The notes: generated from the letters alone by a model not told the origin. A DNA stretch of 64,000 bases from an uncultured Candidatus Saccharibacteria bacterium (GCA_964390745.1 CAYMIK010000002.1:26866-90865); one strand, 5' to 3'; shown: positions 2,865 through 37,718, numbered from the stretch's first letter. Made by a program: numbers and translations.

Positions 2865-3557
2865 GTGCAACTATTAAACTCCACGAATATGAAATCAGTA
2901 GAAACTCATGATGACGTTCCGGAATCTGGTGCGCTTTTTATTACCATCGTAATTTGTATTTTGCTTGTCATTTTGGCCGCTGGTCTTGCCTACAATCTTG
3001 GACAGGCAAACCCATTTGTTCCAGTGCCGGTTGGTGATGTGGTGAAAGTTGAACCAACGGATCTTGCCAAGAAACTCAAGATGGACAATGCTGATGTGCA
3101 TGTTGTTTTGAATCTGAACAATGGGTACGCGAATGTTGAAATCACACCAAAGGATGGTTTTGTTATGCCCGCTGGTGCAACTATTGAAGCCTATCTTGTT
3201 GATGGTGGCACCGTGGGAGACTTTGGAACCTCGTCTGAAACCAAGGCTGATGAATTCTATGGTCAAACGCTCTCGAACGGTGATGTTGACACGTTATACG
3301 ATCAGATCCCGTACGCGCTTTCTTTCGGAAGAATCAAACGAGAAGACAAAACAAACAGATACGCAATAACATACAATGTTCAGAACACTCTGACCCCGTA
3401 TGATCAAATTGTTTTGACCCTAGAAAGCGACACGGAACGATCCGATTTTGACCCTCGTCCCGGTGCCGTGCTCTTTCGAGGTTCAATTCCCAACACGATG
3501 AAATCACAAAAAGCCTTGAATGAGGCTGACGAAGCGAGTGATGCATCACGTAAGTAG
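2865..3557 (+). CDS. Hypothetical membrane-anchored protein (single N-terminal TM helix)
   Basis: Hydrophobic segment LFITIVICILLVILAAGLAY, then a hydrophilic domain. The start may be the M at 2889. Confidence 0.55.
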   Translation: MQLLNSTNMKSVETHDDVPESGALFITIVICILLVILAAGLAYNLGQANPFVPVPVGDVVKVEPTDLAKKLKMDNADVHVVLNLNNGYANVEITPKDGFVMPAGATIEAYLVDGGTVGDFGTSSETKADEFYGQTLSNGDVDTLYDQIPYALSFGRIKREDKTNRYAITYNVQNTLTPYDQIVLTLESDTERSDFDPRPGAVLFRGSIPNTMKSQKALNEADEASDASRK

Positions 3558-3564
3558 GTAGATT

Positions 3565-4272
3565 ATGCCACTTCCCACACCCAGTCCGATGCCAGGACAA
3601 ATGCCTATTGGAAACCCACAACGTCCCGTGGGTGGTTTTGGAGGTAATCCGCTTCCGCCTGCAATGGGTGGACAGATGCAGCAAGGAATGGCGGGAGCGC
3701 AACAAAGCAGCATGTCGGGCGGAATCCAGGGAGGAATGGCAGGTCAGTATCAGCCGCAAGGTATGGCGGGGCAATCGCGCATTGACTACGCAGGGAGACA
3801 GCGAGAAATTTTGAATGCACACTTGCAGCGCCAAGGACAGGCCGCCATGAATGCTGCGTCACAGAATTCTGGCGGATTCTTCTCTAAAATTTTTGGTGGC
3901 GGTGCGGCTACTTCGGCTAGTGGTGCTTCTGCTCCACGTTCAGCTACGGCACAACAAGCACAGGAGCAAGGAGGCACAAAGCCCGGTGGACTTTTATCTA
4001 CTTTGGGATTTGGCCGTCCATCGCAAAATGCAGCGCAGACACAATCGTATGCTGCACGCAGAGGCGAAGCCTACTCCTCCTACAAAAAAGCTACGATGCA
4101 GCAATCCAAAATGCAAAAAGATATGGCATTTCGCCAACGCCAGATGGAGCGTGCAAAAAGTTCTTCCATGCAGCGATTCCATGCTTCGAAGCTTGAGAAA
4201 ATGCAGAAATCTTTTGACAAAAGCTCCAAATCGACGAAAAAGAGCTACCTCGATTACAAGTACACAAAATAG
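3565..4272 (+). CDS. Low-complexity Gly/Gln/Met-rich protein (intrinsically disordered, prion-like composition)
   Basis: Repeated GGxMxQGMAG / QGMAGQ units, then a K/Q/S-rich tail. The stop shares 1 nt with the lgt GTG start. Confidence 0.55.
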   Translation: MPLPTPSPMPGQMPIGNPQRPVGGFGGNPLPPAMGGQMQQGMAGAQQSSMSGGIQGGMAGQYQPQGMAGQSRIDYAGRQREILNAHLQRQGQAAMNAASQNSGGFFSKIFGGGAATSASGASAPRSATAQQAQEQGGTKPGGLLSTLGFGRPSQNAAQTQSYAARRGEAYSSYKKATMQQSKMQKDMAFRQRQMERAKSSSMQRFHASKLEKMQKSFDKSSKSTKKSYLDYKYTK

Positions 4273-5060
4273 TGCTTCCATACTACCAATTCACAACCTA
4301 TCATATTGGACCCGTGGTCTTGCAGGTATGGGGAACATTTGTCGCGCTGGGTTTTGGTGCTGCGCTTTGGCTGGGTTTTCGAGAAGCACCAAAACGTCGT
4401 CTCGATACGGATTATTTTCTCTCTCTGTCGCTTTGGATGGTTGTCTTTGCGCTCATCGGCGCGCGGCTTTTTTATGTTCTACTTTTTTGGGGTGACTATC
4501 AGGGCAATCTCTTGCAGGTTCTGGAGGTTTGGAATGGGGGAATGGTAGCGTATGGCGGTATTATAGGGGCTCTTGTGGCACTGTATGTCTTTCTTCGACG
4601 CCACAAGCTTCCTATTCTCGAATACCTGGATCTGGTCGCACTTGTTTTTCCTGCGGGGTATGCTATTGGACGGATCGGTTGTCACCTCATCAGGGATCAC
4701 ATGGGAAAACTTACCAATATGCCATGGGGATTCGTGATTGCACCCGGCGAAGTTCGTCACGATACGGCTCTCTATAGTATCCTCGGCGGGATAGTTTTAT
4801 TTGCGATCTTCTGGTTCAATAGAAAGAGATTTCGTACTCCGGGTGTCATCGCCCTTGCAACGGCTGGTCTGTATGCCCTCGAACGCATGATTATTGATAA
4901 TTTTCGGGCTACGGACATTACCGGCAGTGACCCAAGGTTTTATGGCTTCACTCTTTCGCAGTATATTTCTGCTTTGACTGTTCTCTTTTGCGCTGTAACA
5001 CTTTTTTATCTACTTAGACACAAATCATCCCCAGAAATACGCGAAAAGCCTCTTGATTGA
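4272..5060 (+). CDS. lgt: Prolipoprotein diacylglyceryl transferase
   Basis: EVWNGGMVAYGGIIGALV and GRIGCHL signature regions of Lgt. Multi-pass membrane protein with a GTG start. Confidence 0.8.
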   Translation: MLPYYQFTTYHIGPVVLQVWGTFVALGFGAALWLGFREAPKRRLDTDYFLSLSLWMVVFALIGARLFYVLLFWGDYQGNLLQVLEVWNGGMVAYGGIIGALVALYVFLRRHKLPILEYLDLVALVFPAGYAIGRIGCHLIRDHMGKLTNMPWGFVIAPGEVRHDTALYSILGGIVLFAIFWFNRKRFRTPGVIALATAGLYALERMIIDNFRATDITGSDPRFYGFTLSQYISALTVLFCAVTLFYLLRHKSSPEIREKPLD

Positions 5061-5087
5061 GGCAGACCGGTTCATTATAATAATTGC

Positions 5088-5858
5088 ATGAAACGAAAAA
5101 TGTTCTCCTGGCAGAATTTACTCGTAGTTCTGGGAATTCTCGTGCCCGAAGGACTCCTTTTTTGGTATGCAGACAAAGGTACTACGAGCATATTTTTGCT
5201 TGCTGGTCTGGTGTTTGGATGGAACTTTGTCTTCTTAGCCGTACGTTTTTTCGCGGTTCGTTTTATCTTCGACAAAAAAGAAAAGTTTTGGACGCATGTC
5301 CTTACCATGTTTCTTACTTCGAACTATCTTTTCTTTGGTTTTGGAACCTGGATCTTTGTTGATACGGACTCCATAACCTACCGCGTCCTGCCATTTGCCT
5401 TGCTTGCGCTCTATGCTGTGGTGTGGCTTTCGCAAAACTCTGTATTTTGGGAAGTTTTTACCTTTGTTGCGCTCGCACTCAGTATGGTGTTTTCTTGGCT
5501 CCTGGTCATTCCACTCGCGTTCTCTGGTGGGGTACTTGCAGCCATCTGCCTGTACAGCGTCTTCATTGCGGCCTACAACTGGGCCAAAATTCAAGAACTT
5601 GATATACATAACGCCCTATTTTTTGCGGCACTGACATCGCTTATTATGAGCGAAGTCAGCTGGGTGCTCCTCCTCTGGCCCATACACCTTACGAGCCTCA
5701 CAGTTATTATGTTGGGGATCTTCTTTACCTTTGGGATGCTTGTTATACGTGCGCACCACAAAAGACTGCGCTCACACCATGCGGTTTCGTACCTTGCAAC
5801 CTCGCTCTTATTTTTCGTGTTCCTTTGTATGACGAGTCAATGGAAGCCTCCCTTATAA
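5088..5858 (+). CDS. Hypothetical polytopic membrane protein
   Basis: About 8 hydrophobic helices and no catalytic motif recognised. Confidence 0.5.
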   Translation: MKRKMFSWQNLLVVLGILVPEGLLFWYADKGTTSIFLLAGLVFGWNFVFLAVRFFAVRFIFDKKEKFWTHVLTMFLTSNYLFFGFGTWIFVDTDSITYRVLPFALLALYAVVWLSQNSVFWEVFTFVALALSMVFSWLLVIPLAFSGGVLAAICLYSVFIAAYNWAKIQELDIHNALFFAALTSLIMSEVSWVLLLWPIHLTSLTVIMLGIFFTFGMLVIRAHHKRLRSHHAVSYLATSLLFFVFLCMTSQWKPPL

Positions 5859-7441
5859 AAAAAATACAACAATTTCTTGTTCACTATTCGTACCAGCTTT
5901 CTCTGGCGTTTCTTGTCATTCTGGTTTCTGTATTTGGTGCCATTGAGCTCGTTCGTGGTGGAACGCTCACGACGTTTACGGGCATCGCGATGCTCCTATT
6001 GGTTCTGGTTGTTGTTGCGGTGTGGGTGAAGAAGGGTCACGTTGAATGGATCCTGTACGCCTACGTCTTTATTCAGCCACTTACAAAATTCCAGACGATT
6101 GTCTTTGGATCAATTCGTCTGAGCTTCGTATTGTTTGGGTGCGCTATCCTTGGTTATATTTTCGTCGTTTTCAAAAAGAAATCCTGGAACGATGTAAAGC
6201 TTTCGAAACTCTTTGTTCCACAGGCGTTGTTTGTTGCTGCAGTAGTTCTCTCTACTTTGATCAATATAGCCCACGTACAAAGTTTCGAGCGAGCTGTTTT
6301 GCATCTTTCTAACCTTATCTTTGTTGTCCTTGCTTTGCAGCTTATTGATTCAGGAGAGAAGTTCTTTCGACTTGTAGCAACGTGGTACGCAAGTGTTACG
6401 CTTCTGGTTCTTTTTGGTGCGGCTGTTTCTGTCTGGAGCGAGATTACGGGGCGCACGACTTCTGAATTTGTACAAACTTCCGTTGATGGCGTGATTCGTA
6501 TTTCTTCGCTGACTCCCGATGCCGGGTATTTTGCCTCCTTGCTTCTGATCCCGATGGCACTGGGTCTTGCTCTTCTGCTGACACAAAAAATTCTCTTGAA
6601 GCGGTCGTATGCAATCTTCCTGACCTTTTTTGTCGTCATGAGCATTGCACTTATGCTCATCTCGTACTCTCGCGCAGGATTCTTGGCGATGCTCGCAGTA
6701 TTTTTCTTCCTTTTGTTTTTTGAAAAACAGTATCGGCGCTACCTTTTCTGGACAAAATTTGCTGGGCTTATCGTTGCAGGTATTATTGTTGCCGTCGTTT
6801 TGCAGCCACAATTCTTGCGCAACATGGTGCTCCGTGTCCCGAACTCAGTAATTTCTCAGCATGAGAAAATTATAATGGCTTCAGCACTGAACTTTGATAA
6901 GTCGAAAATTCTTTTTGTCGGGCAGGGGAGAGGGTTGGTTGGCGGACACGATGCTACGGCACAGGAGCTCGATCAAAACTTTGAAGACAATATTTCTTCA
7001 GATGCGATCGATGTTCGAACATTGTACTGGAATGTAGCGATAAAAATGTTTCAGAGACACCCAACTTTTGGTCTCGGATCCAATGGGTATCCATACAATT
7101 TTGAAACATACTACGGCTACTCCTACTTTGCCAAGTTGCCCAACGCGCATAATATTTACCTTGAAACGGCAGCCGAGTATGGAGTTGTGGGGCTCGCTGC
7201 CCTCGCGTATCTTGTGATTCGCGCCTTGGTACAGGTTCGAACCTTGCACTCTTTTGCAGGCGACGCGCAAAAACCATTCCTGTACGCGCTGGGTGTAGCG
7301 TTTATTGCCTCGCTCTTGCAGTTTTTCTTCCAGCCCGGTTTCAATGTCCTGAATCTTTGGCTTATTATCGCAGCTTTGAGTCTCTATGAAGTTTTACCCA
7401 AAGAAGAGCTGAAAAAAATTTCTCAAACCATTTCCAAGTAA
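5840..7441 (+). CDS. O-antigen ligase / Wzy-type polymerase family membrane protein (Wzy_C domain)
   Basis: ISYSRAGFLAMLAVFFF and NAHNIYLETAAEYGVVGL motifs are typical of the WaaL/Wzy family. The ORF-track start at 5825 is TTG; the first ATG in frame is 5840. Confidence 0.7.
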   Translation: MEASLIKKIQQFLVHYSYQLSLAFLVILVSVFGAIELVRGGTLTTFTGIAMLLLVLVVVAVWVKKGHVEWILYAYVFIQPLTKFQTIVFGSIRLSFVLFGCAILGYIFVVFKKKSWNDVKLSKLFVPQALFVAAVVLSTLINIAHVQSFERAVLHLSNLIFVVLALQLIDSGEKFFRLVATWYASVTLLVLFGAAVSVWSEITGRTTSEFVQTSVDGVIRISSLTPDAGYFASLLLIPMALGLALLLTQKILLKRSYAIFLTFFVVMSIALMLISYSRAGFLAMLAVFFFLLFFEKQYRRYLFWTKFAGLIVAGIIVAVVLQPQFLRNMVLRVPNSVISQHEKIIMASALNFDKSKILFVGQGRGLVGGHDATAQELDQNFEDNISSDAIDVRTLYWNVAIKMFQRHPTFGLGSNGYPYNFETYYGYSYFAKLPNAHNIYLETAAEYGVVGLAALAYLVIRALVQVRTLHSFAGDAQKPFLYALGVAFIASLLQFFFQPGFNVLNLWLIIAALSLYEVLPKEELKKISQTISK

Positions 7442-7453
7442 TCGGGAGGATGT

Positions 7454-8674
7454 GTGTCTGAAACCATCATTACTTCTATTAAAGAAAAATCAGAAGGACC
7501 ATACCAAAAAATGAACGATGTCGACATGAAGCGACGTTTTAAGAAGCGACGAAGAGCGTTTGCTGGCCTCTTTGTATTTATTTCACTCGTAGTAGGTTTT
7601 ATCGGCGCCTTTTTGTATGATGAATTTGGACATCCGTTTTTTGCTTCCCATGGTCTTTTGCTGGGAATGAGCAATGGTGAAACTCGCGAGCTACAACCAG
7701 TAACTGTTGTCCAAAACGATGCAACCATTGATGCAGTTTCGAAGGTGAGCCCGGCCGTAGTAAGTATTGTGGCGCAATCTGGAAACAAGCGTATTAACTT
7801 TTTTAACGGCCAAGTGGGAACAACAACAGCATCTGGCTCGGGATTTATTGTGACTAGAGATGGACTTATCGCAACCAATCGTCATGTTATTGAAGACTCA
7901 ACAAAGATTTCCGTCATAACACAAGACGGTGGAAATTATGAGGCTAAGCTTATTAGTACCGATCCGCTCAATGACTTCGCGATCATAAAAATCGATAAAA
8001 AGGACCTTCCCGTTGTTGATCTTGGGTACTCCGACGAATTGAAAGTTGGGGAGCCAGTTATCGCCATCGGAAACGCTCTTGGCTCGTACACAAACTCTGT
8101 AACGGTAGGAGTTATTAGCGGAACCAACAGGGCCATTGTGGCGCAGTCAGAAAATTCTGAATCAGATCTTGAGGGTTTGTTGCAGGTGGATGCAGCCATT
8201 AACCAAGGTAACTCTGGCGGCCCACTCGTAAACATTAAAGGACAAGTAATCGGCGTTAACACGGCTGTCGACAAATCGGGGGAAGGCATTGGTTTTGCTA
8301 TACCGATTAATGATTTGCGACCAGCGATAGAAAGCGTGATCTCACAAGGTAAGATTGTTCGGCCCATGCTGGGAGTTCGCTACGTAAACATCACGCCAGA
8401 AATTTCTGCTCTGAACAAACTTTCAGTGAACAGGGGCGCGCTCCTCGATGGTGGACAAGGTGCAGAAAGTGGCATCATCGCTGGTGGCCCCGCCGACAAA
8501 GCAGGCCTCAAAACGGGGGACATAATAGAATCGGTCAACGGGCAAGAGATTAACGAACAAAACAGTCTCACGCGTATCTTGCAAAAGTTTAAGCCAGGTG
8601 ATCAGGTGGAAATTAAGTACCTTCGCGACGGCAAAGAGGCTTCTACGAAGGCAACCCTTAAAGAGGCTTCATAG
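7454..8674 (+). CDS. htrA: HtrA/DegP-family trypsin-like serine protease with C-terminal PDZ domain
   Basis: TNRHV (His), GNSGGPL (Ser), PDZ segment GIIAGGPADKAGLKTGDIIESVNG. N-terminal TM anchor. GTG start preceded by gggagga. Confidence 0.9.
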   Translation: MSETIITSIKEKSEGPYQKMNDVDMKRRFKKRRRAFAGLFVFISLVVGFIGAFLYDEFGHPFFASHGLLLGMSNGETRELQPVTVVQNDATIDAVSKVSPAVVSIVAQSGNKRINFFNGQVGTTTASGSGFIVTRDGLIATNRHVIEDSTKISVITQDGGNYEAKLISTDPLNDFAIIKIDKKDLPVVDLGYSDELKVGEPVIAIGNALGSYTNSVTVGVISGTNRAIVAQSENSESDLEGLLQVDAAINQGNSGGPLVNIKGQVIGVNTAVDKSGEGIGFAIPINDLRPAIESVISQGKIVRPMLGVRYVNITPEISALNKLSVNRGALLDGGQGAESGIIAGGPADKAGLKTGDIIESVNGQEINEQNSLTRILQKFKPGDQVEIKYLRDGKEASTKATLKEAS

Positions 8675-8716
8675 AGCCTTTTCTTGGGAGTTGCTTGAAA
8701 CCAGAAAGCGCGTGTC

Positions 8717-8745
8717 TTGACAAAACACATAAAAAACGTTAGAGT
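8717..8745 (+). promoter_or_regulatory. Sigma70-like promoter TTGACA-17-TAGAGT
   Basis: ttgaca at 8717-8722, 17-nt spacer, tagagt at 8740-8745, about 22 nt upstream of the ATG at 8767. Confidence 0.45.
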
Positions 8746-8766
8746 TGGTTGTCAGAAAGAAACTCT

Positions 8767-9639
8767 ATGAAGCCAACACTCTTTCAAATCATCCGATCGC
8801 GCTTTGAGCACCTCGTTGTTATCTTCTTAACGGTGACGCTCATTGCGGTTATTATCACGATTGCCACGACTCCAAAATACGAAGGGCACTCGCGTATTCT
8901 TGTTATCCAAAAACAGCAATCGATCGATGCTTTTACGGCATCCAAGTCTGCTGACTACATAGCTGGCCTCTTAAATGAAGCGGTGTATTCCAAGTCATTT
9001 TTTGATTCACTCACAAAGCGCGACACGGGCCTTGCGTCACATTTTAGCAGTGACCCCGATAAGCGTTCGAAAGAATGGGCAAAGATGGTGGACTCGCGCG
9101 TGGATTCTGGAAAAGGCATCCTTGAAGTAAAGGTGTACGATGCGGACTCGAAACAAGCACAGCATGTTACTGATCTTATCGTTGCTACTCTCGTAAGTGA
9201 TGGTGCAAGCTATTACGGAGGGAGCTCGGATATTTCGATGCGTGTTATTGACGCTCCATCGGTTTCCACAAAACCGGCTCGACCATCGTTTGTATTAAAC
9301 ATCGGTGGCGGTATTTTGGTTGGCCTTGCACTTGACCTTGTGTACATTTTTATTATCGATTTGAGTTTGGCTCGAAAATTGGAAGAACGAGAGTACAATG
9401 GCCGACTTCATGAAGAAAACGAAATTCCACAAGACATTGAATTCTTGGCAGACGGTCATGTAGCCGCACAGCCGACACAACATGTTGTTTCGGAAAACTT
9501 TGAAGCACTTACTTCCCTGAAGCCATTTGCTTCAGAAGATCAGCCAATGCAAACTCCGCCTCAAGCACAAACTGTTCGTGAGGTACCTTTGCCGGATGAC
9601 GCTGCTTCGAATATTCAAAATTGGATGCGAAAAGAATAA
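8767..9639 (+). CDS. Wzz/CapA-like polysaccharide chain-length determinant (polysaccharide co-polymerase), no kinase domain
   Basis: N-terminal TM + PKYEGHSRILV Wzz signature and a C-terminal TM (LNIGGGILVGLALDLVYIFII). No Walker motifs. The ORF-track start at 8749 is TTG. Confidence 0.7.
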   Translation: MKPTLFQIIRSRFEHLVVIFLTVTLIAVIITIATTPKYEGHSRILVIQKQQSIDAFTASKSADYIAGLLNEAVYSKSFFDSLTKRDTGLASHFSSDPDKRSKEWAKMVDSRVDSGKGILEVKVYDADSKQAQHVTDLIVATLVSDGASYYGGSSDISMRVIDAPSVSTKPARPSFVLNIGGGILVGLALDLVYIFIIDLSLARKLEEREYNGRLHEENEIPQDIEFLADGHVAAQPTQHVVSENFEALTSLKPFASEDQPMQTPPQAQTVREVPLPDDAASNIQNWMRKE

Positions 9640-9659
9640 GTTGTTCGCGCAGAAGAAGC

Positions 9660-11114
9660 CTAGCGAATATTTCGTAGGTGTTTTTGGTTTTGGAGCACAT
9701 GGAAGATGCTTCCAAACATCGCAAGGAGAATCCAGTACAGCGTTGTGTTTTGGTAGAGATTATCAAAAAAACTCACGAACATCATGCCTAATGTCTCAGC
9801 GAGAATAAGGTACACAAGTACTCGCTCCTTTTGTGACGAGGCTCTTTTGAGATATAAGATAACCTCCGAAGAAAGCATTGCGAAAAAACCAATGAACGCG
9901 GCAAGGCCTGCGACCCCAAGTTCTACAAGAAGCTTCAGGTAGTCGTTGTGCGCATCAAACGATGTGTTGATTTCGTTTTCAGCAAACTGAATAAAGGTTC
10001 CGCCGCCGTAGCCTTTCAGAAGATGTTCTTGTGCGGGTCCGAGAATAGCATTCCAAAACTGGAATCTCCAGGTAACAGAGGTATCGGGGTTTAATTGGGC
10101 TGTTTGTAAAAGCCTTGAGACGATCGATATTTGAGTTGGTTGAAATGACGTATAGGCCTGCAGGAAAAGCCCAAGGGCGACTACGGCAAAAAGAGTGCCA
10201 AATGCCAACACCGTGAGTCGTGCAAAGTGTTCACGAAAGAAAACTATACTCAAAAGAGCTACGCCAATTACCGCGTAACCCCAGCCAGCACGCGAGAACG
10301 TAAAGACCAGCAAAAATCCGTAAAAGAGAAACAGCACGCCGTAGGTTCGTTTATACAACGGAAAAAGAACCATGAGTGCCAGAGCAAGAATCATCAGGGC
10401 TGCAAGGTAGTGGCCAAAGAGTGATGGGTGAGCAAAGGTTCCGAGAATTCGATTGCTGCTGGCTTCATCGGCGAGACCTGTTTTGGTAATGAGCTGATAC
10501 AAACCAATCACCACGGGGGAGATGGAAGAAGCAAAGATGGCCGTAGTTATCGTGCGCACGTCGTGCAGATTTTTGGTGAATTCAAAGCCAAGCAAAAAGA
10601 TAACAACGTAGCTTGCAATACGTATGGTTTCGCCAAAAACGGTTATTGGATCGCGGGTAAAAATAATTGAAGCAAGTGTTGCCAAAACCAAAAGAGCGAG
10701 TGGATAAAAAACAGGAATGCGGAAAACGCGCGTACGTTTGTACAAAAGATAAAATATGCCCCAGCCAACAACGAAGATTCCAAAGATCGCATTGAGGTTA
10801 ATAATGAGAACATTTTGAATATTGAATGAAACGCGCTGTCCCAGCATGTCGATGAGCGGACGCGCAATAAGAAGGGCGATAAATCCAGCTTTTGGGCGCA
10901 CCACAAAAAGTGGCGCAATGAGTACCACGGCAAATGCTGACAAGATCTTTAAGATGTCAGCGTTGACTATAATGAGCACGGTGGCAACGATAGTTCCCAG
11001 AAGAACCAGCATTGCCGCAAAAAATTGTGACTGGCGCGTGGTAAGGCTTTGTGACACTAGATTCTTTTTACAGATAACGTATAATGCGGATATGAGGATT
11101 TTGCATGCCAACAA
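9660..11114 (-). CDS. O-antigen ligase / Wzy-type polysaccharide polymerase (Wzy_C)
   Basis: FTFSRAGWGYAVIGVALL and DAHNDYLKLLVELGVAGL motifs, with 10-12 TM helices. Confidence 0.75.
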   Translation of the reverse strand: MLACKILISALYVICKKNLVSQSLTTRQSQFFAAMLVLLGTIVATVLIIVNADILKILSAFAVVLIAPLFVVRPKAGFIALLIARPLIDMLGQRVSFNIQNVLIINLNAIFGIFVVGWGIFYLLYKRTRVFRIPVFYPLALLVLATLASIIFTRDPITVFGETIRIASYVVIFLLGFEFTKNLHDVRTITTAIFASSISPVVIGLYQLITKTGLADEASSNRILGTFAHPSLFGHYLAALMILALALMVLFPLYKRTYGVLFLFYGFLLVFTFSRAGWGYAVIGVALLSIVFFREHFARLTVLAFGTLFAVVALGLFLQAYTSFQPTQISIVSRLLQTAQLNPDTSVTWRFQFWNAILGPAQEHLLKGYGGGTFIQFAENEINTSFDAHNDYLKLLVELGVAGLAAFIGFFAMLSSEVILYLKRASSQKERVLVYLILAETLGMMFVSFFDNLYQNTTLYWILLAMFGSIFHVLQNQKHLRNIR

Positions 11115-30914: not shown

Positions 30915-32554
30915 TGGCCAAGAAACAACCAACGAAGTACATCTTCGTTACAGGAGGAGTTATCTCGGGTATTGGAAAAGGTGTAGCCACCTCTTCTATC
31001 GCGCGAATCTTGAAAGATAAGGGGTATCGTGTTTCGTGTATGAAGGCAGATATGTACATCAACCTTGATGCAGGAACGATGCGTCCAACCGTTCACGGAG
31101 AAGTGTTCGTGACAACTGATGGTATGGAAACAGACCAAGACGTTGGAAACTATGAACGATTTTTGGACGAACCACTGGATTCACGGCACTATACCACCAC
31201 AGGTCAGGTATATCAGACCGTTATTCAAAAAGAGCGAAACCTCGAATACGATGGAATTTGTGTTGAAGTTGTTCCACATATTCCCGAAGAGTTTATTCGT
31301 CGCGTAAAAGCAGGTGCAAAAGACAAGAGCTCTGAAATATTCGTAATTGAAATTGGTGGAACAACGGGTGAGTATCAGCAGGCTCTGTTCTTGGAGGCTA
31401 TCCGAATGATGGCGTTGCAAGAGGGTTCTGAAAATATTATCAATATTCACGTTGCGTACTTGCCAATTCCTCAGCACTTGGGTGAAATGAAGTCAAAACC
31501 GGTGCAGCACTCCGTGCGAATGCTGAACGGCGCCGGAATCCAGCCTGATTTTATTGTTGCTCGCTCAGAGGAGTATATCGACGAAGAACGACGCAAGAAG
31601 ATTTCTATCTTCTGCAATGTTTCTCCTGACTCAGTTATCGCAGCACCAAACGTGAAGTCTATTTACAGCGTTCCCTTGGTCTATGAAAAGCAGAAATTTG
31701 GCGATAAGCTCTTGAAGCGGATGGGGCTCAAGGCAAAGAAGAAGGATGGTAAAGAGTGGCAGGCGCTTGTAAAACGCATTGAATCGGCCAAAAAAGAGGT
31801 AAAAATCGGTATAGTAGGGAAGTACTTCGATGTCGGAAACTTCACTTTGGAAGATTCGTACATTTCTGTTATCGAATCCCTGAAACATGCAGCCTGGGCA
31901 AATGGCGTAAAGCCAAAGTTGGATTGGATTAACTCGAAAGAATTTGAAAAAGATCCTAAGGCACTTGAACGATTGAAAGAATACGATGGTATCTTGGTTC
32001 CTGGCGGATTCGGCTCAAGTGGAATCGAAGGAAAGATTAAAGTTATCGAATTTGTTCGAGAGCACAAAATTCCATACTTTGGTTTGTGCTACGGCATGCA
32101 GCTTGCAGTGATCGAGTTTACGCGCAATGTTCTTGGATTGAAGGATGCTCACACTACCGAGGTGAATCCAAAGACCAAGAATCCGGTGATTCACATCATG
32201 GCCGAGCAGGTTGAGAAAGTTGCCAAGAAAGATCTTGGTGGAACGATGCGACTTGGCTCATACCCATGCGTATTGGTTCCAGGCTTGAAAGTTGCAAGCG
32301 CCTACGGAACTCGAAAGATTTCCGAACGACATCGCCATCGATATGAGTACAACAACGAGTATCGAAAGCAGCTTGAAGACGCTGGGCTGAAGGTTGCTGG
32401 TCTTTACCCTGAAAAAGACTTAGTAGAAATTGTGGAGCTTGAAGGACACCCATGGTTTGTGGGAACACAGTTCCACCCAGAGTTCCAATCTTCGCCATTG
32501 AATCCACATCCTTTGTTTAAGGACTTCATAGCAGCGGCGTTGAAGAACAAATAG
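30914..32554 (+). CDS. pyrG: CTP synthase
   Basis: KYIFVTGGVISGIGKG N-terminus. Glutaminase domain GLCYGMQ (Cys) and HPEF (His). Confidence 0.95.
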   Translation: MAKKQPTKYIFVTGGVISGIGKGVATSSIARILKDKGYRVSCMKADMYINLDAGTMRPTVHGEVFVTTDGMETDQDVGNYERFLDEPLDSRHYTTTGQVYQTVIQKERNLEYDGICVEVVPHIPEEFIRRVKAGAKDKSSEIFVIEIGGTTGEYQQALFLEAIRMMALQEGSENIINIHVAYLPIPQHLGEMKSKPVQHSVRMLNGAGIQPDFIVARSEEYIDEERRKKISIFCNVSPDSVIAAPNVKSIYSVPLVYEKQKFGDKLLKRMGLKAKKKDGKEWQALVKRIESAKKEVKIGIVGKYFDVGNFTLEDSYISVIESLKHAAWANGVKPKLDWINSKEFEKDPKALERLKEYDGILVPGGFGSSGIEGKIKVIEFVREHKIPYFGLCYGMQLAVIEFTRNVLGLKDAHTTEVNPKTKNPVIHIMAEQVEKVAKKDLGGTMRLGSYPCVLVPGLKVASAYGTRKISERHRHRYEYNNEYRKQLEDAGLKVAGLYPEKDLVEIVELEGHPWFVGTQFHPEFQSSPLNPHPLFKDFIAAALKNK

Positions 32555-32563
32555 TCAAACACT

Positions 32564-32590
32564 AAAAAACACCGGTGATCGGTGTTTTTT
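32564..32590. terminator. Bidirectional intrinsic terminator between pyrG and the convergent phosphatase gene
   Basis: aaaaaacaccg-gtgat-cggtgtttttt. Confidence 0.65.
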
Positions 32591-33044
32591 AGTTCTTCTT
32601 GAGTGTTGTGACGAGTTGATCAACCTTCTTCGTTATCTTATCGTAACTTTTTTCAAAAAAGGCGTGCATTTGTTTATCCGTCTTTGGGGGTTTACGAACC
32701 TCACCGATATCAGCTATGTGCCAGACGATAACCTTTCTTGGAAGTTTCACTATTTTTTTGACTTCGCTGAAGACGCGTTGATTGACGCAGACGATGATAT
32801 CGTTTTTGTCTATGCGAGCTTGCGTGAGTCGGTTACTTCGTTTCTTTTTGTATTTTTTAATTTTGTGTTCAATGAAAATGCTCTTCAGGTTGTCACTGAT
32901 GGTGTCGGGATCGCGGTTTGCCACGGTTCCACTTGAAATAACGCTGACGTTGGGAAGATGGAGCGACTTGAGATACGCCTCGGCAATCTTACTTCGAAAA
33001 ATATTTCCGCGACAGATAAAATGGATACGCAACGATTTTTTCAT
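32589..33044 (-). CDS. Low-molecular-weight protein-tyrosine phosphatase / ArsC-fold phosphatase
   Basis: P-loop IHFICRGNIFRS (C-X5-R) at the N-terminus, ~150 aa. Confidence 0.7.
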   Translation of the reverse strand: MKKSLRIHFICRGNIFRSKIAEAYLKSLHLPNVSVISSGTVANRDPDTISDNLKSIFIEHKIKKYKKKRSNRLTQARIDKNDIIVCVNQRVFSEVKKIVKLPRKVIVWHIADIGEVRKPPKTDKQMHAFFEKSYDKITKKVDQLVTTLKKN

Positions 33045-33131
33045 GGGGGAATGATATCACGAAGGGCAAATGGGGACAATGTGCGAGAAAATGATGATAT
33101 AATCGAAGGCGTAAGCCAATGAAAGGAAATT

Positions 33132-33797
33132 ATGAAACTTCTTCTCACGTCGAGCGGACTCATGAATACATCAATTATTCGTGAGCTAAAACGACTCATT
33201 GGAAAACCGATGAGCAAGGTGAATGTCGCCTTTATTCCTACAGCGTTGAATGTGGAAGAGGGGGACAAGCATTGGTTTTTAGAAGATCTCCAGGATATCT
33301 ACAAGTTGAAACCTGCACAAGTGGATATAGTTGATATTTCGGCGTTATCGCGCGAAGTATGGCAAAAGCGCCTTCAAAAAGCAGATGTTCTTATTTTTGA
33401 AGGTGGCAATACGTTCCACCTTATTAACTGGGTTAGAAAGAGTGGGCTCGAAAAGATTCTGTCTAAGCTTTTGAAAACTCGTGTATATGTTGGAATTAGT
33501 GCGGGATCGATTCTGGTGAATCCAAGAATTAAACTCGTACCCGAGGAGAGGCTTGAATCTTTTGAACCTAAGGGATCGGTCCAAGAAGGTTTGGGTCTTG
33601 TGTCATTTGGAATTCGACCACATGTGAACAGAAGATCTTTTCCTGACATGCGATTTTCAAAACTCAAACAGCTTGCCAAAAAGACTGTGATGCCATTTTA
33701 CGCGATCGATGATGACACGGCCATTTCTGTTGATGGAAAAAAGATCAGAGTTATCTCAGAGGGCAAGTGGAAGCTCTTCAATGCTGAAAAGCAATGA
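33132..33797 (+). CDS. Peptidase S51 (dipeptidase E / cyanophycinase-like)
   Basis: LLLTSSG ... VLIFEGGNTFHL ... YVGISAGS (nucleophile Ser) pattern of the PepE family. Confidence 0.7.
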   Translation: MKLLLTSSGLMNTSIIRELKRLIGKPMSKVNVAFIPTALNVEEGDKHWFLEDLQDIYKLKPAQVDIVDISALSREVWQKRLQKADVLIFEGGNTFHLINWVRKSGLEKILSKLLKTRVYVGISAGSILVNPRIKLVPEERLESFEPKGSVQEGLGLVSFGIRPHVNRRSFPDMRFSKLKQLAKKTVMPFYAIDDDTAISVDGKKIRVISEGKWKLFNAEKQ

Positions 33798-34399
33798 AGA
33801 TTCTTGAAAAGATTACTGAAGATGAAATGATTTCTGTATTCTTGCTCGCCGAGATTCATTCGAGCCGTTTTGGTGCCCGCATTCGAAAATTCGTGAAACA
33901 GCTCGGGGTCTCCAAGGAGGTTGTGCTGAACCCAGACCTCAAAGATGAAAAACAGAACAGGCAAAGAAAAAACATCCTCGAGAAACATCGATATTACAAG
34001 AGTCGAAAAAGATTTTTCGAGAGCTTTCCTGCGGATGTTCAATGGTATCGAGCTGAAATAAACCCAAGAGAATTCAGAAAACTCTTTTACATCAATGAAG
34101 AGTACTGGGTGCTCCGCTCTCATGGCTCGAGACTTGCGAGTGATGGTGCGAAAAGTGTTCTTTCGGGAGAGAAAATCTTTAGTGAATCCAATCGGGTATT
34201 TTACGATGTCGCAAGATCTCTTGATAACAAAACGCAACGGCCAATCATCCTGGTCGCACAAAACAAAACGTCAAAACGTGTGGTCATGGAAGGTCATGTG
34301 CGCATGACAGCTTATTCGATGCGACAAAAAAAGATTCCAAAAAGAATGAGAGTTCTTGTGGGCTTTTCAAAGAGAATGAATGAGTGGGATCTGTATTAG
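33794..34399 (+). CDS. Hypothetical protein (201 aa, basic)
   Basis: Intact ORF with a 4-nt overlap with the pepE-like gene. No motif recognised. Confidence 0.45.
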   Translation: MKILEKITEDEMISVFLLAEIHSSRFGARIRKFVKQLGVSKEVVLNPDLKDEKQNRQRKNILEKHRYYKSRKRFFESFPADVQWYRAEINPREFRKLFYINEEYWVLRSHGSRLASDGAKSVLSGEKIFSESNRVFYDVARSLDNKTQRPIILVAQNKTSKRVVMEGHVRMTAYSMRQKKIPKRMRVLVGFSKRMNEWDLY

Positions 34400-34409
34400 C
34401 GACCTAATC

Positions 34410-34436
34410 AAAAACTGCTCGTGAGAGCAGTTTTTA
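34410..34436. terminator. Bidirectional intrinsic terminator
   Basis: aaaaactgctc-gtga-gagcagttttt between convergent genes. Confidence 0.65.
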
Positions 34437-34760: not shown

Positions 34761-36005
34761 CTAGATGCTCCATACGCTGATTTCGCGTCCAACCTGAGCG
34801 TCGGGGCGAGCGTACAGAAAAGTTTTTCGTGAGACGGAAAAATCGGAAGGGGGAGTAATGCCCGATCCTGAAAAAAGATCAAGCTGAGTATATCCCAAAC
34901 TGCGTACGGTGTCAAGCCATGGGGCGAAAACGCGGTCTTTTCCCATTTGATAGAACGGCATGCACAAAACAATGCGTGAATTTGGCTCAAAAAAGCCTGA
35001 TTTCAAGGACTTAAGTGCTTCGATGCAAATTCGCTTGAGTCGCATGTGTTCTTCGTTCAGATCGAAGATTTGAGGTTTGTTGAAAAATGTCTTTCCGAGG
35101 TACCCCTCGGTTACAACAGCATGCATTTTAACACCAAAAGTGTTGGCGACGGTTTGGGCGTTCGCTTGCTTGATTTCTATCGCCTTGCTGATTTCGGGGT
35201 GTTCCTTTTGGAGCCATGCCAAGTTTTCTTTGGCTCTCTCGATCACTTCTTCGCTTATGTCAGAGCCGTAGGCGTTGTAGCCCATGAGAACAGATTCCTG
35301 GAGGATGGTGCCAAGGCCACAAAATGGGTCGTAGATATTGGCGTTTTCTTTTGGTGTCGCAAGGTTAATAAGTATCTGCGAAAGTTTGAGGGGAAGCATT
35401 CCAAGTTTTTTGTCGCGATGTGGGCGAAACTCGTCGCGCTGTGAGTAGGCTTCGATATCTTGAACGGCGCAGGTTCGGGCGAGGCAGTATGCCGACTTCG
35501 TCTTGATAACAATGAGCTCGCTTTTTGTTTCGTGCAGCTTGTTTTGAAATGTGGTTGCTGACGTAAGAATATTTTCTTGTCTTGATTCGACATAGCGCGA
35601 TTTGATGCCTTGGGATTTGAGTTCCTTTTTGAGCGAGATACCAATTCCGGAGAGTGTTCGTGCAATGTTCTGTTGAATGTTGAGCGCGCCGAGATTAAAG
35701 CTTCTGGCATCGTTGGTGAAGGCGTGTTTTGAGACAAGGTCGGCGGTAAAAACTTCGTTTATAAGTTGCGCAACATCGCGATGCGTTTTGGAAGCTTCGG
35801 CGTCTTCGAACTCTTCCACGATTTCCATAATACGAATAGTTCCACCCAATTGATTGATGAGTTTTTGGGCTTCGAGGTCTTTTGAAACTTCAATAACGAC
35901 AACTTCTTGTTCGTGGGAAAGGGAAGAAATCTCTGGCACAGCACAAAGAATTTCTGCTAAGCTGAGAGCTTTATTGGTTCCAAGTTGGAAGGCGTATTTA
36001 GGCAT
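34761..36005 (-). CDS. THUMP-domain RNA (guanine/adenine-N) methyltransferase, class I SAM-dependent
   Basis: DPFCGLGTILQESVLMGYNAYGSDIS (motif I) with an N-terminal RNA-binding region. Confidence 0.65.
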   Translation of the reverse strand: MPKYAFQLGTNKALSLAEILCAVPEISSLSHEQEVVVIEVSKDLEAQKLINQLGGTIRIMEIVEEFEDAEASKTHRDVAQLINEVFTADLVSKHAFTNDARSFNLGALNIQQNIARTLSGIGISLKKELKSQGIKSRYVESRQENILTSATTFQNKLHETKSELIVIKTKSAYCLARTCAVQDIEAYSQRDEFRPHRDKKLGMLPLKLSQILINLATPKENANIYDPFCGLGTILQESVLMGYNAYGSDISEEVIERAKENLAWLQKEHPEISKAIEIKQANAQTVANTFGVKMHAVVTEGYLGKTFFNKPQIFDLNEEHMRLKRICIEALKSLKSGFFEPNSRIVLCMPFYQMGKDRVFAPWLDTVRSLGYTQLDLFSGSGITPPSDFSVSRKTFLYARPDAQVGREISVWSI

Positions 36006-36053
36006 AATGACGAGGTTAATCGTTTCTTAATAAACAAGTGCCAGAATCGTAGC

Positions 36054-36635
36054 ATGAAACTTTTAGAAAGTCGAAAAGAAATCTTGATTCGAGCTTTGAA
36101 GGTGCTGTGTTTGGTTTTAGCGCTCGCTTCTGCTTTTGTGGGTGGGGTGTTGTACTCAAGGCAGCCCGACGGCTTGAATTTTGTTGAGCCAAAGCCGCGG
36201 CCAAAGGCAGTCGTCGCGGTAAATGCGGGTGGAGTTGCCGTTCCAAAGTCGCAGGATTTTACATTGTATGCAAAAGACGGACTTGCGACAGCGGGGGACA
36301 AGGTGACGGTTTCAGGGTTTGCTGGGCCCATTTCTGTTTTTAATGATTCGCTAGAAGTGGAGTTGAATTTTGAGAAAGGGTTTGGGGCGCAGGGGTCTGT
36401 TCCTGCGTGTGGTGCAGGTGAAGATGCTCTTGCGGGTTCTGCTGATGCAAAAAGTTCTGGAGCAAGTACTTCTGGCCGAATAGTGGCATCAAAAAGTGGC
36501 ACGAAGTATTATTTTGAGTCGTGCTCGGAGGTTGGGCGAATTAAGAAGGAAAACTTGGTGTATTTTGCTTCGGAGGCAGGGGCGAAGGCGAATGGGTATG
36601 ATGCGTCGAGTTGTGTAAGTAAGACAAGAATCTAA
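36054..36635 (+). CDS. Hypothetical secreted/membrane-anchored protein
   Basis: N-terminal hydrophobic LKVLCLVLALASAFVGGVL and a Cys-containing C-terminal segment TKYYFESCSEVGRIKKENLVYFASEAGAKANGYDASSC. The ORF-track start at 35985 would overlap the divergent MTase start. Confidence 0.5.
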   Translation: MKLLESRKEILIRALKVLCLVLALASAFVGGVLYSRQPDGLNFVEPKPRPKAVVAVNAGGVAVPKSQDFTLYAKDGLATAGDKVTVSGFAGPISVFNDSLEVELNFEKGFGAQGSVPACGAGEDALAGSADAKSSGASTSGRIVASKSGTKYYFESCSEVGRIKKENLVYFASEAGAKANGYDASSCVSKTRI

Positions 36636-36657
36636 AATACACTATTAGCCGGAATTA

Positions 36658-37314
36658 TTAGAAAAGGCTAATCCAGTACTTCAATTTTGATTGTTCCATA
36701 AATCTATAATGCTTTCCCGGATCCTTAGAGATTTCTTCTTGCACATATTCTACAGCCTTCTCGAAACTCTTATATAGTGAAAATGGGTCAATAATGTACC
36801 TTTTTGATTCGCTTTTTTTCCAAGATTGATCTTCCTGTATGACATCGCCCGAATCTATTGCGCCCAAAATGAAGAAAGAAAGAATCTTGGTGGTTTTGTT
36901 TCGATGATAAAGTGAATACTTGTTATGTTTTACGCCATTTGCTAAATCGGCAAGGGCCTGAACAAGGTCCTGATTGTTAATAACCATATAACGTGACAAG
37001 AAGTCTGGGTGGCTAATGCCCAGAACTTTTCTCAGGATATCAATACCAATACTCAACAGTAGTAGCGATGCAAAAATTGCTGGACCAAACGTCAAGTTGT
37101 GCATATTATTCTTTCCTGCCCTCGTCTTTCCAAGACAATACATTATATCCTCTCTTAGCAAATAGAGCGGAGAGTACCTTATCCCGTATTTGATAATATG
37201 TTGCTCGTTGTATTTTTGTCTATAGTCCAGTGCATATCGCGCATGATCAAGCCTTGGGGAATAGAAATAAAAAAACGACCTCAGGTCAATTTCTTCTGTG
37301 GGAATCTTTTTCAT
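36658..37314 (-). CDS. Hypothetical protein (218 aa) in an AT-rich segment, start overlaps atpC stop (ATGA)
   Basis: Intact ORF. The coding DNA is visibly AT-rich relative to its neighbours. One hydrophobic segment (LTFGPAIFASLLLLSIGIDIL). No recognisable family. Confidence 0.55.
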   Translation of the reverse strand: MKKIPTEEIDLRSFFYFYSPRLDHARYALDYRQKYNEQHIIKYGIRYSPLYLLREDIMYCLGKTRAGKNNMHNLTFGPAIFASLLLLSIGIDILRKVLGISHPDFLSRYMVINNQDLVQALADLANGVKHNKYSLYHRNKTTKILSFFILGAIDSGDVIQEDQSWKKSESKRYIIDPFSLYKSFEKAVEYVQEEISKDPGKHYRFMEQSKLKYWISLF

Positions 37315-37717
37315 TTATCTTGAGCAACCTTCAGTCTCGTTCTCGCATACTCCAACGCCTTCAAAGCTTGATCAAAGCTCAACGAATTGTCTCTGCCTTG
37401 CATTACGGCAAGAGCTTTTTGTCGCGAAGCTTCAGCTTCGGCAATGTTGATATCCGAAGGAAGTTCGGCAGAATCGGCAAGAATAGTGACAATGTTGTTA
37501 TTTACTTCCAAGAATCCGCCGCTTGTGGCTAAGGCGATTCGCTCAGAGCCGCTGTGAATTTTAATTTCACCCGGCTCGATGAGGGTTACCAGGTTATCGT
37601 GGTGGGGAAGGATTGTTATTTCTCCTAACGCCGTTTTTGCGGTTACTGAATCTGCTGTTTGTGAATAAACAGTTTTTTCTTGGGTAACAACGGTGAATTG
37701 GAGAGACTTTGATTCCA

Positions 37718-37718
<1 letters not shown>
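37311..37718 (-). CDS. atpC: F1 ATP synthase epsilon subunit
   Basis: LQFTVVTQEKTVY...GEITILPHH, at the operon end after atpD. Confidence 0.85.

Follow-up and report, generated by a model that had tools for sequence, protein, structure and literature searches.

Behind atpC, in a 64,000-nucleotide (nt) stretch of DNA from an uncultured Candidatus Saccharibacteria bacterium (GCA_964390745.1, CAYMIK010000002.1:26866-90865; the whole stretch is called the window here), lies a gene for a protein of 218 amino acids (aa) that an initial annotation had described as an AT-rich orphan translationally coupled to the F1Fo ATP synthase operon. Two readings had been left side by side by that annotation, namely an accessory or regulatory factor of ATP synthase and a horizontally acquired accessory or defence gene that hitchhikes on the operon. 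It is the second that fits best, because members of the same protein family lie elsewhere in restriction-modification and defence neighbourhoods. Taken as a whole, the explanation that we consider probable is that the gene is acquired cargo encoding a HEPN-like protein, that it is expressed by read-through from the atp genes, that the window copy is inactive or strongly attenuated owing to the substitution R125A, and that it plays no role in ATP synthase.

Gene content of the slot behind atpC

The minus strand of the window carries the whole atpIBEFHAGDC operon (calls of open reading frames, ORFs; gene order compared with the relatives L022 and L023), and atpC is its final true gene. Close relatives were reached by a search with atpD; genome and metagenome scans with atpC gave only distant relatives, at 30-43% identity. 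The best atpD matches were metagenome-assembled genomes of Patescibacteria, Moranbacteria and Falkowbacteria. In the relatives L019, L020 and L021, AtpD is 99% identical as protein and ~88% as DNA, and blastn homology to these three stops at 37304 (37324 for L021) and restarts at 36618 (36627 for L021), delimiting a lineage-specific segment (Table 1). In its place, L019 and L020 hold 964 base pairs (bp) of unrelated DNA, consisting of a 118-aa ORF for a three-helix membrane protein plus ~600 bp, and L021 holds 1387 bp, likewise unrelated, that comprise the gene for a 316-aa Fic protein (L021:2503-3453; HPMTDANGRLAR; 27.1 bits to Pfam Fic) as well as a 65-aa ORF. The 118-aa ORF of L020 (L020:3983-4339) starts at the AAATGA junction of atpC like the window gene, to which it is unrelated. 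In L023 (GCA_042571135.1; atpD 83% identical) the slot is 0 bp long: the atpC stop abuts the stop of a convergent 188-aa gene, which is followed by a UPF0020 methyltransferase gene and L27, and the window shows the order of L023, except that the 218-aa gene intervenes between atpC and the gene convergent to it. Yet another gene follows atpC in L022 (atpD 86%), and atpC is the last gene of the operon in more distant relatives. No second copy or remnant of the family was found in the window or in L019-L023.

Judged by gene order, 36619-37303 is acquired cargo in a variable slot, because relatives with the same flanks hold other cargo or nothing there. The horizontal insertion into a core operon that had been proposed initially is supported by the empty slot of L023 and the unrelated cargo of L019-L021; these genomes do not keep the gene at this position. 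The 218-aa gene is horizontally acquired cargo of a Patescibacteria (candidate phyla radiation, CPR) genome, lying between atpC and a housekeeping gene that converges on it. Horizontally transferred genes of CPR/Patescibacteria reportedly show an enrichment in defence functions (PMC12455944), and some members of the family described below occur in CPR/Patescibacteria.

That defence or toxin genes are carried at integration hot spots flanked by genes of the conserved core is an established concept (defence islands). The flanks formed by atpC and the convergent gene resemble such hot spots in that they hold a HEPN-like gene, a Fic gene, a small membrane protein gene or nothing; they differ in that the slot takes one gene, is placed at the 3' end of the atp operon and lacks an integrase, a tRNA and flanking repeats. 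What the locus offers is a variable slot for one gene, located where a housekeeping operon ends, with different toxin-like cargo in sister genomes. The 118-aa membrane ORF of L020 and the Fic protein of L021 are, as a side observation, typical toxin or accessory genes.

If the product were an accessory or regulatory factor of ATP synthase, it would be co-translated with the epsilon subunit and would assemble with, or regulate, F1Fo. The ATGA overlap with the atpC stop and the lack of a separate promoter speak for such a factor, as does the use of the same junction by the unrelated ORF of L020; however, atp genes are found beside homologues in none of the eight distinct homologue contexts that were examined, the operon of L023 ends at atpC, L019-L022 have unrelated genes there, and atpC comes last in distant relatives. 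The product also bears no Pfam or NCBIfam likeness to an ATP synthase subunit or known regulator, and 4-nt overlaps are routine in the window genome, joining 9 of 48 same-strand neighbour pairs. Known accessory proteins of ATP synthase include AtpI and inhibitors such as the alpha-proteobacterial zeta subunit and cyanobacterial AtpTheta. Genomic adjacency to atp genes is all that the 218-aa protein shares with them, whereas sequence similarity and conserved linkage are absent and size and fold are different; moreover, this type of operon already has AtpI at its 5' end (the PF09527 gene of L022 and L023). Altogether, these comparisons effectively refute the reading as an ATP synthase factor, to which we assign next to no probability. 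The position behind atpC is unusual and probably incidental, and a tempting misreading is removed: the locus holds no new ATP synthase subunit or regulator.

The AT-richness that had been noted is real and mostly reflects amino-acid composition. The GC content of the gene (0.377) is the lowest among the 62 ORFs of the window (mean 0.451, standard deviation 0.024, z = -3.1), and the shortfall lies in codon positions 1 and 2 (GC1 z = -2.6; GC2 z = -1.5). GC3 (0.411 versus 0.453 +/- 0.037; z = -1.1) is unremarkable, and so is synonymous codon choice, on which 12 of 61 genes have a lower score. A GC content of 0.406 is predicted from the amino acids and host codon usage, and ~60% of the shortfall is attributable to a protein rich in Y/I/K/L and poor in A/V/G/T. 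Family members are GC-poorer than their own surroundings at seven of eight loci.

A rare protein family and its motif

An exhaustive phmmer search with the window protein against 1.84 billion representatives returned 45 matches at E<1e-3, 15 of which reach E<1e-10; the majority are full-length, at 210-230 aa, and align from residue ~7 to ~216, and the nearest homologues are 37%, 33% and 36% identical to the window protein. About 41 of the 45 matched clusters are genuine full-length relatives, with P0002 matching at E=6.8e-31. The gene is therefore not the orphan of the earlier description; the protein has no match in Pfam, NCBIfam, PADLOC or PHROGs. A k-mer-indexed homology search retrieved the window protein alone, an exact-sequence contig look-up gave no match, and a hidden Markov model of the family matched only the 218-aa ORF in the window (195 bits). 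The family is a rare, undescribed one of ~220-aa proteins.

Four long tetratricopeptide repeat (TPR) proteins (P0033, P0037, P0039 and P0041) are also among the matches; they align only to the window-specific RKVLGISHPDF, and they appear because RKVLGISH(PDF) mimics the TPR_10/12 repeat RKVLGEEHPDT. The R-x6-H segment to which attention had been drawn initially is thus present, but it is not conserved, and the real motif of the family is R-[NDH]-x3-H at residues 125-130. As a minor observation, the window-specific DILRKVLGISHPDF (37009-37041, residues 92-103) imitates the TPR_10/12 repeat consensus; this likeness is probably a convergent helix-turn cap and not homology.

In an alignment of 50 sequences the signature extends to L-R-[N/D/H]-x-x-x-H-x-x-Y-S-L. 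Its histidine is present in all 50 and its arginine in 49, the window copy being the sole exception, and the residue that follows the arginine is N in 42, D in six and H in two. The upstream acidic residue D56, inside a predicted helix (49-60), is D in 43 and E in three of the 50 sequences. AlphaFold2 (AF2) reached a predicted local distance difference test score (pLDDT) of 41 on the single sequence, and a pLDDT of 88.6 with a predicted template modelling score of 0.86 when given the family alignment. In the latter model helix 115-130 has the motif at its C-terminus, and after it come a loop, a beta meander (136-175) and a long helix (177-197).

One hydrophobic helix had been pointed out in the window protein, and it is there (residues 76-98, Kyte-Doolittle 2.04), but it is not a conserved membrane anchor. 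Across 31 members the best 19-residue hydropathy has a median of 1.41, and N, D, E or K occur in the helix of most members. A conserved anchor was excluded because this hydropathy is at least 1.6 in only 8 of the 31, and no conserved transmembrane segment was found among these members by hydropathy. In the model, in which the remainder of the protein looks soluble, the helix is probably buried rather than a membrane anchor.

HEPN domains are defined by an Rx4-6H motif that ends helix 3, by N, D or H as the polar residue behind its arginine and by an acidic residue upstream; the arginine and histidine are needed for metal-independent RNA cleavage, and linkage to restriction-modification is among the commonest HEPN contexts (PMC3710099). 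The family alignment has an arginine and histidine at this spacing, with N/D/H after the arginine, and D56 as the conserved acidic residue upstream; the motif arginine is missing from the window protein. No significant profile match to any known family was obtained in Pfam or PADLOC with members or consensus. HEPN was, however, the recurring group among sub-threshold matches in every member or consensus scan. The family consensus matched Cthe2314 (E=0.01), Swt1 (0.024-0.048; 0.024-0.24 across member and consensus scans) and DUF4145 (0.055), and single members matched RiboL-PSP (0.02), HepT (0.043), AbiA_CTD (0.18) and Cas13a (0.0092); RiboL-PSP, with two members, was the sole family matched sub-threshold by more than one. 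Foldseek found no significant structural neighbour, with the HEPN chains Las1 and HepT among its weak PDB matches, and a PDB sequence-profile search gave one irrelevant match (E=0.39) and, with the consensus core, weak matches to MDA5.

Motif, acidic residue, weak matches and genomic neighbourhoods together make it likely that the family belongs to the HEPN superfamily. By analogy, its members may be RNases with a defence or toxin function, and they would act as stand-alone HEPN endoribonucleases, that is, as abortive-infection or toxin effectors often placed beside restriction-modification systems in the manner of PrrC. We think it rather doubtful that the family is instead no HEPN RNase at all, with a convergent R-N-x3-H, and that it serves defence islands in another way, for instance as a sensor or a different enzyme. 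Such an origin would account for the fact that no HEPN match passes the threshold and that a single short motif drives them all, for the Foldseek result, and for the large beta insert and the conserved N-terminal region (FFFxP...Y, RYSPLYLL), which have no HEPN counterpart; however, the motif agrees on four points that are independent of each other (R, H, an N/D/H behind the R, and helix-end position), the upstream acidic residue is conserved and the restriction-modification context is typical. New HEPN families, furthermore, usually surface at, or are detectable only by, borderline E-values of ~0.05-0.2 (PMC3710099). With ~41 clusters outside Pfam, NCBIfam, PADLOC and PHROGs, the unannotated family is a promising candidate for a defence effector of a new HEPN type.

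The surroundings of the homologues are listed in Table 1, and placement beside known defence systems recurs in unrelated genomes for the family, though not for the window copy. For P0049 and P0050, PADLOC recognised the neighbouring type II methyltransferase at E=7e-119 and the restriction endonuclease at E=8.5e-135. An ATGA overlap with unrelated upstream genes is also present in the family members of L013 and L007, and tight docking at a 3' end is thus not confined to the window copy. Neither a conserved partner nor an antitoxin was found, as the upstream and downstream neighbours are mutually non-homologous and no MNT nucleotidyltransferase is among them. A conserved upstream partner of ~204 aa was considered and rejected: the 204-aa neighbours in L013, L006 and L012 are homologous neither to each other nor to anything in the window.

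Two of these contexts gave side observations. On the CPR-like contig L013, positions 3321-10033 around P0005 may form a multigene defence cassette, which comprises a ZorD/DpdE-like SNF2 helicase, a 327-aa unknown protein, a radical SAM protein, a 204-aa membrane protein, P0005 and an SLFN_AlbA_2 protein, and of which PADLOC recognises the helicase alone. Directly after P0004, a 166-aa gene (L016:3530-4030) without a Pfam match carries R-N-K-I-I-H, and its product may be a second, unrelated HEPN-like protein.

Among known systems, the closest are the solo HEPN families linked to restriction-modification (Abi2/AbiD/AbiF-Swt1-like, RiboL-PSP, Cthe_2314 and DUF4145; Anantharaman et al. 2013, PMC3710099). 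Shared with them are R-[N/D/H]-x3-H at a helix end, the upstream acidic residue and a small, stand-alone, mostly alpha-helical protein whose gene is AT-rich, patchily distributed and found beside type I or II restriction-modification and defence genes. Differences are the best Pfam E-value of 0.01, which is not significant, an N-terminal module (FFFxP...Y / RYSPLYLLxxDIxxC), a beta insert of ~40 residues after the motif and, in the window copy, the absence of both the arginine and defence neighbours. PrrC/PrrI, a HEPN anticodon nuclease within a type Ic restriction-modification system, offers the working model of a latent RNase as a second line of defence, and P0017 lies directly beside hsdMSR; unlike PrrC, the family has no N-terminal ABC ATPase regulatory domain, its link to restriction-modification is one of gene order, and the window copy is not beside such a system. 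The HepT-MntA (HEPN-MNT) type II/VII toxin-antitoxin pair likewise features a small HEPN-type protein with an Rx4H motif, but no MNT nucleotidyltransferase or conserved partner stands beside any family member. HepT-type toxins are inactivated by mutation of the arginine or the histidine.

Start, expression and lost arginine of the window copy

Both the 218-aa ORF and the ATGA overlap of the atpC stop with its start (37311-37314), as first annotated, were confirmed, the former with its start backed by homologues. The start is fixed at ATGA because the N-terminal 57 residues are conserved in homologues, which align from residue ~7 and share the invariant or near-invariant F17, P20, Y27, S48, P49, L50 and D56; the sole alternative in-frame ATG is M58. 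A spurious or decaying ORF, with the operon ending at a hairpin and U-tract (37288-37270) and with a shorter product from M58 or none at all, is highly improbable. This would explain the terminator-like hairpin 23 nt after the atpC stop, as well as a promoter-like site (10/12, 37222-37193) and GAGGATATAATG ahead of M58, with a GAGG ribosome-binding site; however, the hairpin is at chance level (z = -0.24 versus shuffles; 13 terminator-like sites in the scan versus 12.3 expected), residues 7-57 align with all homologues, and the protein, which has the full length of the family, retains 22 of 23 conserved columns. A terminator of the operon within the ORF (37288-37276), combined with a start at M58, was accordingly discarded, on the grounds of the chance-level hairpin and the N-terminal conservation.

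No promoter-like site was found inside atpC, no significant terminator lies between atpC and the 218-aa gene, and an Rfam scan of the window found no RNA family. Shine-Dalgarno sequences are present at few genes of the window. Having no room for a promoter of its own, the gene would ride on transcription of the atp operon, and its translation would start at the ATG formed by the terminal AAA-TGA of atpC, by termination-reinitiation. Co-transcription and translational coupling with the atp genes are plausible from this arrangement, and streamlined genomes may in this way host accessory genes without dedicated regulatory DNA.

The window copy agrees with 22 of the 23 columns that are at least 80% conserved, the one mismatch being R125A, and its fold looks maintained in the comparison. 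The codon of A125 (GCA, 36942-36940) is two substitutions away from any arginine codon. Also lost is the R/K usual at position 122, and K129 and K132 are unique to the window copy. The window protein thus belongs to the family by homology and is without a defining catalytic residue. Most likely it is catalytically dead or strongly attenuated, because the motif arginine, needed for cleavage in characterised HEPN RNases, has been lost. A dead or attenuated R125A allele would make constitutive expression without a regulating partner tolerable.

That the window copy is still an active nuclease, in which K129 and K132 replace the lost R122 and R125, appears unlikely. In this case the substitutions would be compensatory: the window reads ALADLANGVKHNKYSL where the consensus is ALRxLRNALEHNNYSL, position 129 is i+4 from 125 on the same helical face and adjoins H130, no other member has K or R at 129, and the other conserved positions are intact. 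HEPN families without the arginine but with possible basic substitutes are known, e.g. Parep1/8, while the arginine is required in the KEN domain and in PrrC (PMC3710099). Conservation of the arginine in 49 of 50 sequences argues against easy replacement, and an active toxin made constitutively from the atp operon, without an antitoxin close by, would presumably harm the cell.

Several observations weigh against the explanation of the gene as acquired, inactive HEPN-like cargo. The window copy has no restriction-modification or defence neighbour, its neighbours being housekeeping genes. Because K129 and K132, both unique, occur together with the loss of R125, inactivity is not certain. The slot bears no signature of integration: a search for direct or inverted repeats at its flanks, att sites, an integrase and tRNA genes gave only short repeats at chance level. 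No transfer vehicle has been identified either: tblastn of a member and the consensus, together with scans of viral contigs, found the family in no sequenced plasmid, phage or viral contig, save for one match at E=0.2. Lastly, GC3 and codon usage give no foreign signal, and the case for acquisition therefore rests on synteny, not on composition.

A bolder version of the acquired-cargo explanation, which we regard as improbable, is that the 3' end of the atp operon is, in the Patescibacteria genus of the window, a dedicated landing slot in which single toxin or defence genes (HEPN-like, Fic or small membrane protein) are swapped in and out and use the constitutive transcription of the operon and the AAATGA stop/start of atpC. 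The ~220-aa family would then be a new stand-alone HEPN RNase defence family, and the window allele (R122A/R125A, K129/K132) would be a selected variant, rewired or disarmed, with a non-catalytic role (RNA binding, decoy or immunity) and not a product of decay.

Coordinates and neighbouring genes

Table 1. Positions of features in the window, followed by the surroundings of family members on other contigs
Feature	Position or contig	Strand	Evidence or surroundings
218-aa gene	36658..37314	-	ORF call; family hidden Markov model match; AF2 model with family alignment
ATGA overlap: atpC stop TGA (37313-37311) and ATG of the 218-aa gene (37314-37312)	37311..37314	-	sequence read directly
atpC, F1 epsilon subunit, upstream conserved flank	37311..37718	-	NCBIfam TIGR01216, E=1.6e-30
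Lineage-specific segment (cargo slot), 685 bp	36619..37303	-	blastn versus L019, L020, L021
Hydrophobic helix, residues 78-98	37021..37083	-	AF2 helix, block pLDDT ~95
RKVLGISH, residues 95-102	37009..37032	-	specific to the window copy; not conserved in two family alignments
Family signature L-R-[N/D/H]-x3-H; here L124-A125-N126-G127-V128-K129-H130	36925..36945	-	50-sequence alignment
Convergent conserved gene, downstream flank	35985..36635	+	76% identical to a 198-aa protein of L019, 30% to a 188-aa protein of L023
P0017	L004		after hsdM-hsdS-hsdR-YgjP, type I restriction-modification
P0049, P0050	L006, L008-L010		after a helix-turn-helix (HTH) gene, type II methyltransferase, GmrSD_N-HNH restriction enzyme and one variable gene
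P0051	L007		between PDC-S31/DUF2971 and a CoiA-like nuclease
P0002, closest relative	L012		after an SNase-like nuclease; before an 88-aa ORF, then HTH_17 and Fic; CPR-like contig
P0005	L013		after a ZorD/DpdE-like SNF2 helicase and a radical SAM protein; before a Schlafen/AlbA_2 (SLFN_AlbA_2) protein
P0031			after a PBECR2-like protein
P0004	L016		short contig, small unannotated genes

The product of the convergent gene downstream of the slot is membrane-anchored, with a Cys-containing C-terminal domain and a weak Pfam match to Ada_Zn_binding; the conserved C-terminus (SKSGTKYYFESCSEV...YDASSCV) bears a weak likeness to the Ada Zn-binding domain. The TTG start listed for this gene makes a 21-nt overlap with the start of the divergent methyltransferase gene. 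The true start is probably M24 (~36054), because the residue that corresponds to M24 is the first one in homologues (198 aa in L020, with 76% identity).

Accessory genes also differ between the window and its relatives at two further places. Within the operon, between atpD and atpC, L019 (L019:3022-3555), L020 and L021 carry a 177-aa acidic ORF with an AT-rich upstream region and a weak Pfam match to Tox-ODYAM1 (E=4.9e-4). The equivalent position in the window is 37718, where the atpD stop and the atpC start share one base, and the window is thus without this insert. A second variable region lies between rpmA (L27) and the gene for CTP synthase (window 32545-34425). Its ORFs are at 32589-33044 (minus strand), 33132-33797 (plus) and 33794-34399 (plus), and it contains a 151-aa gene resembling low-molecular-weight protein tyrosine phosphatases, an S51 peptidase gene and a 201-aa ORF with a weak HEPN_AbiA_CTD match (E=0.063). 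The corresponding region of L019 holds a non-homologous 244-aa ORF, an S51 gene, an ornithine carbamoyltransferase gene and a 156-aa ORF, and L023 has none of these.
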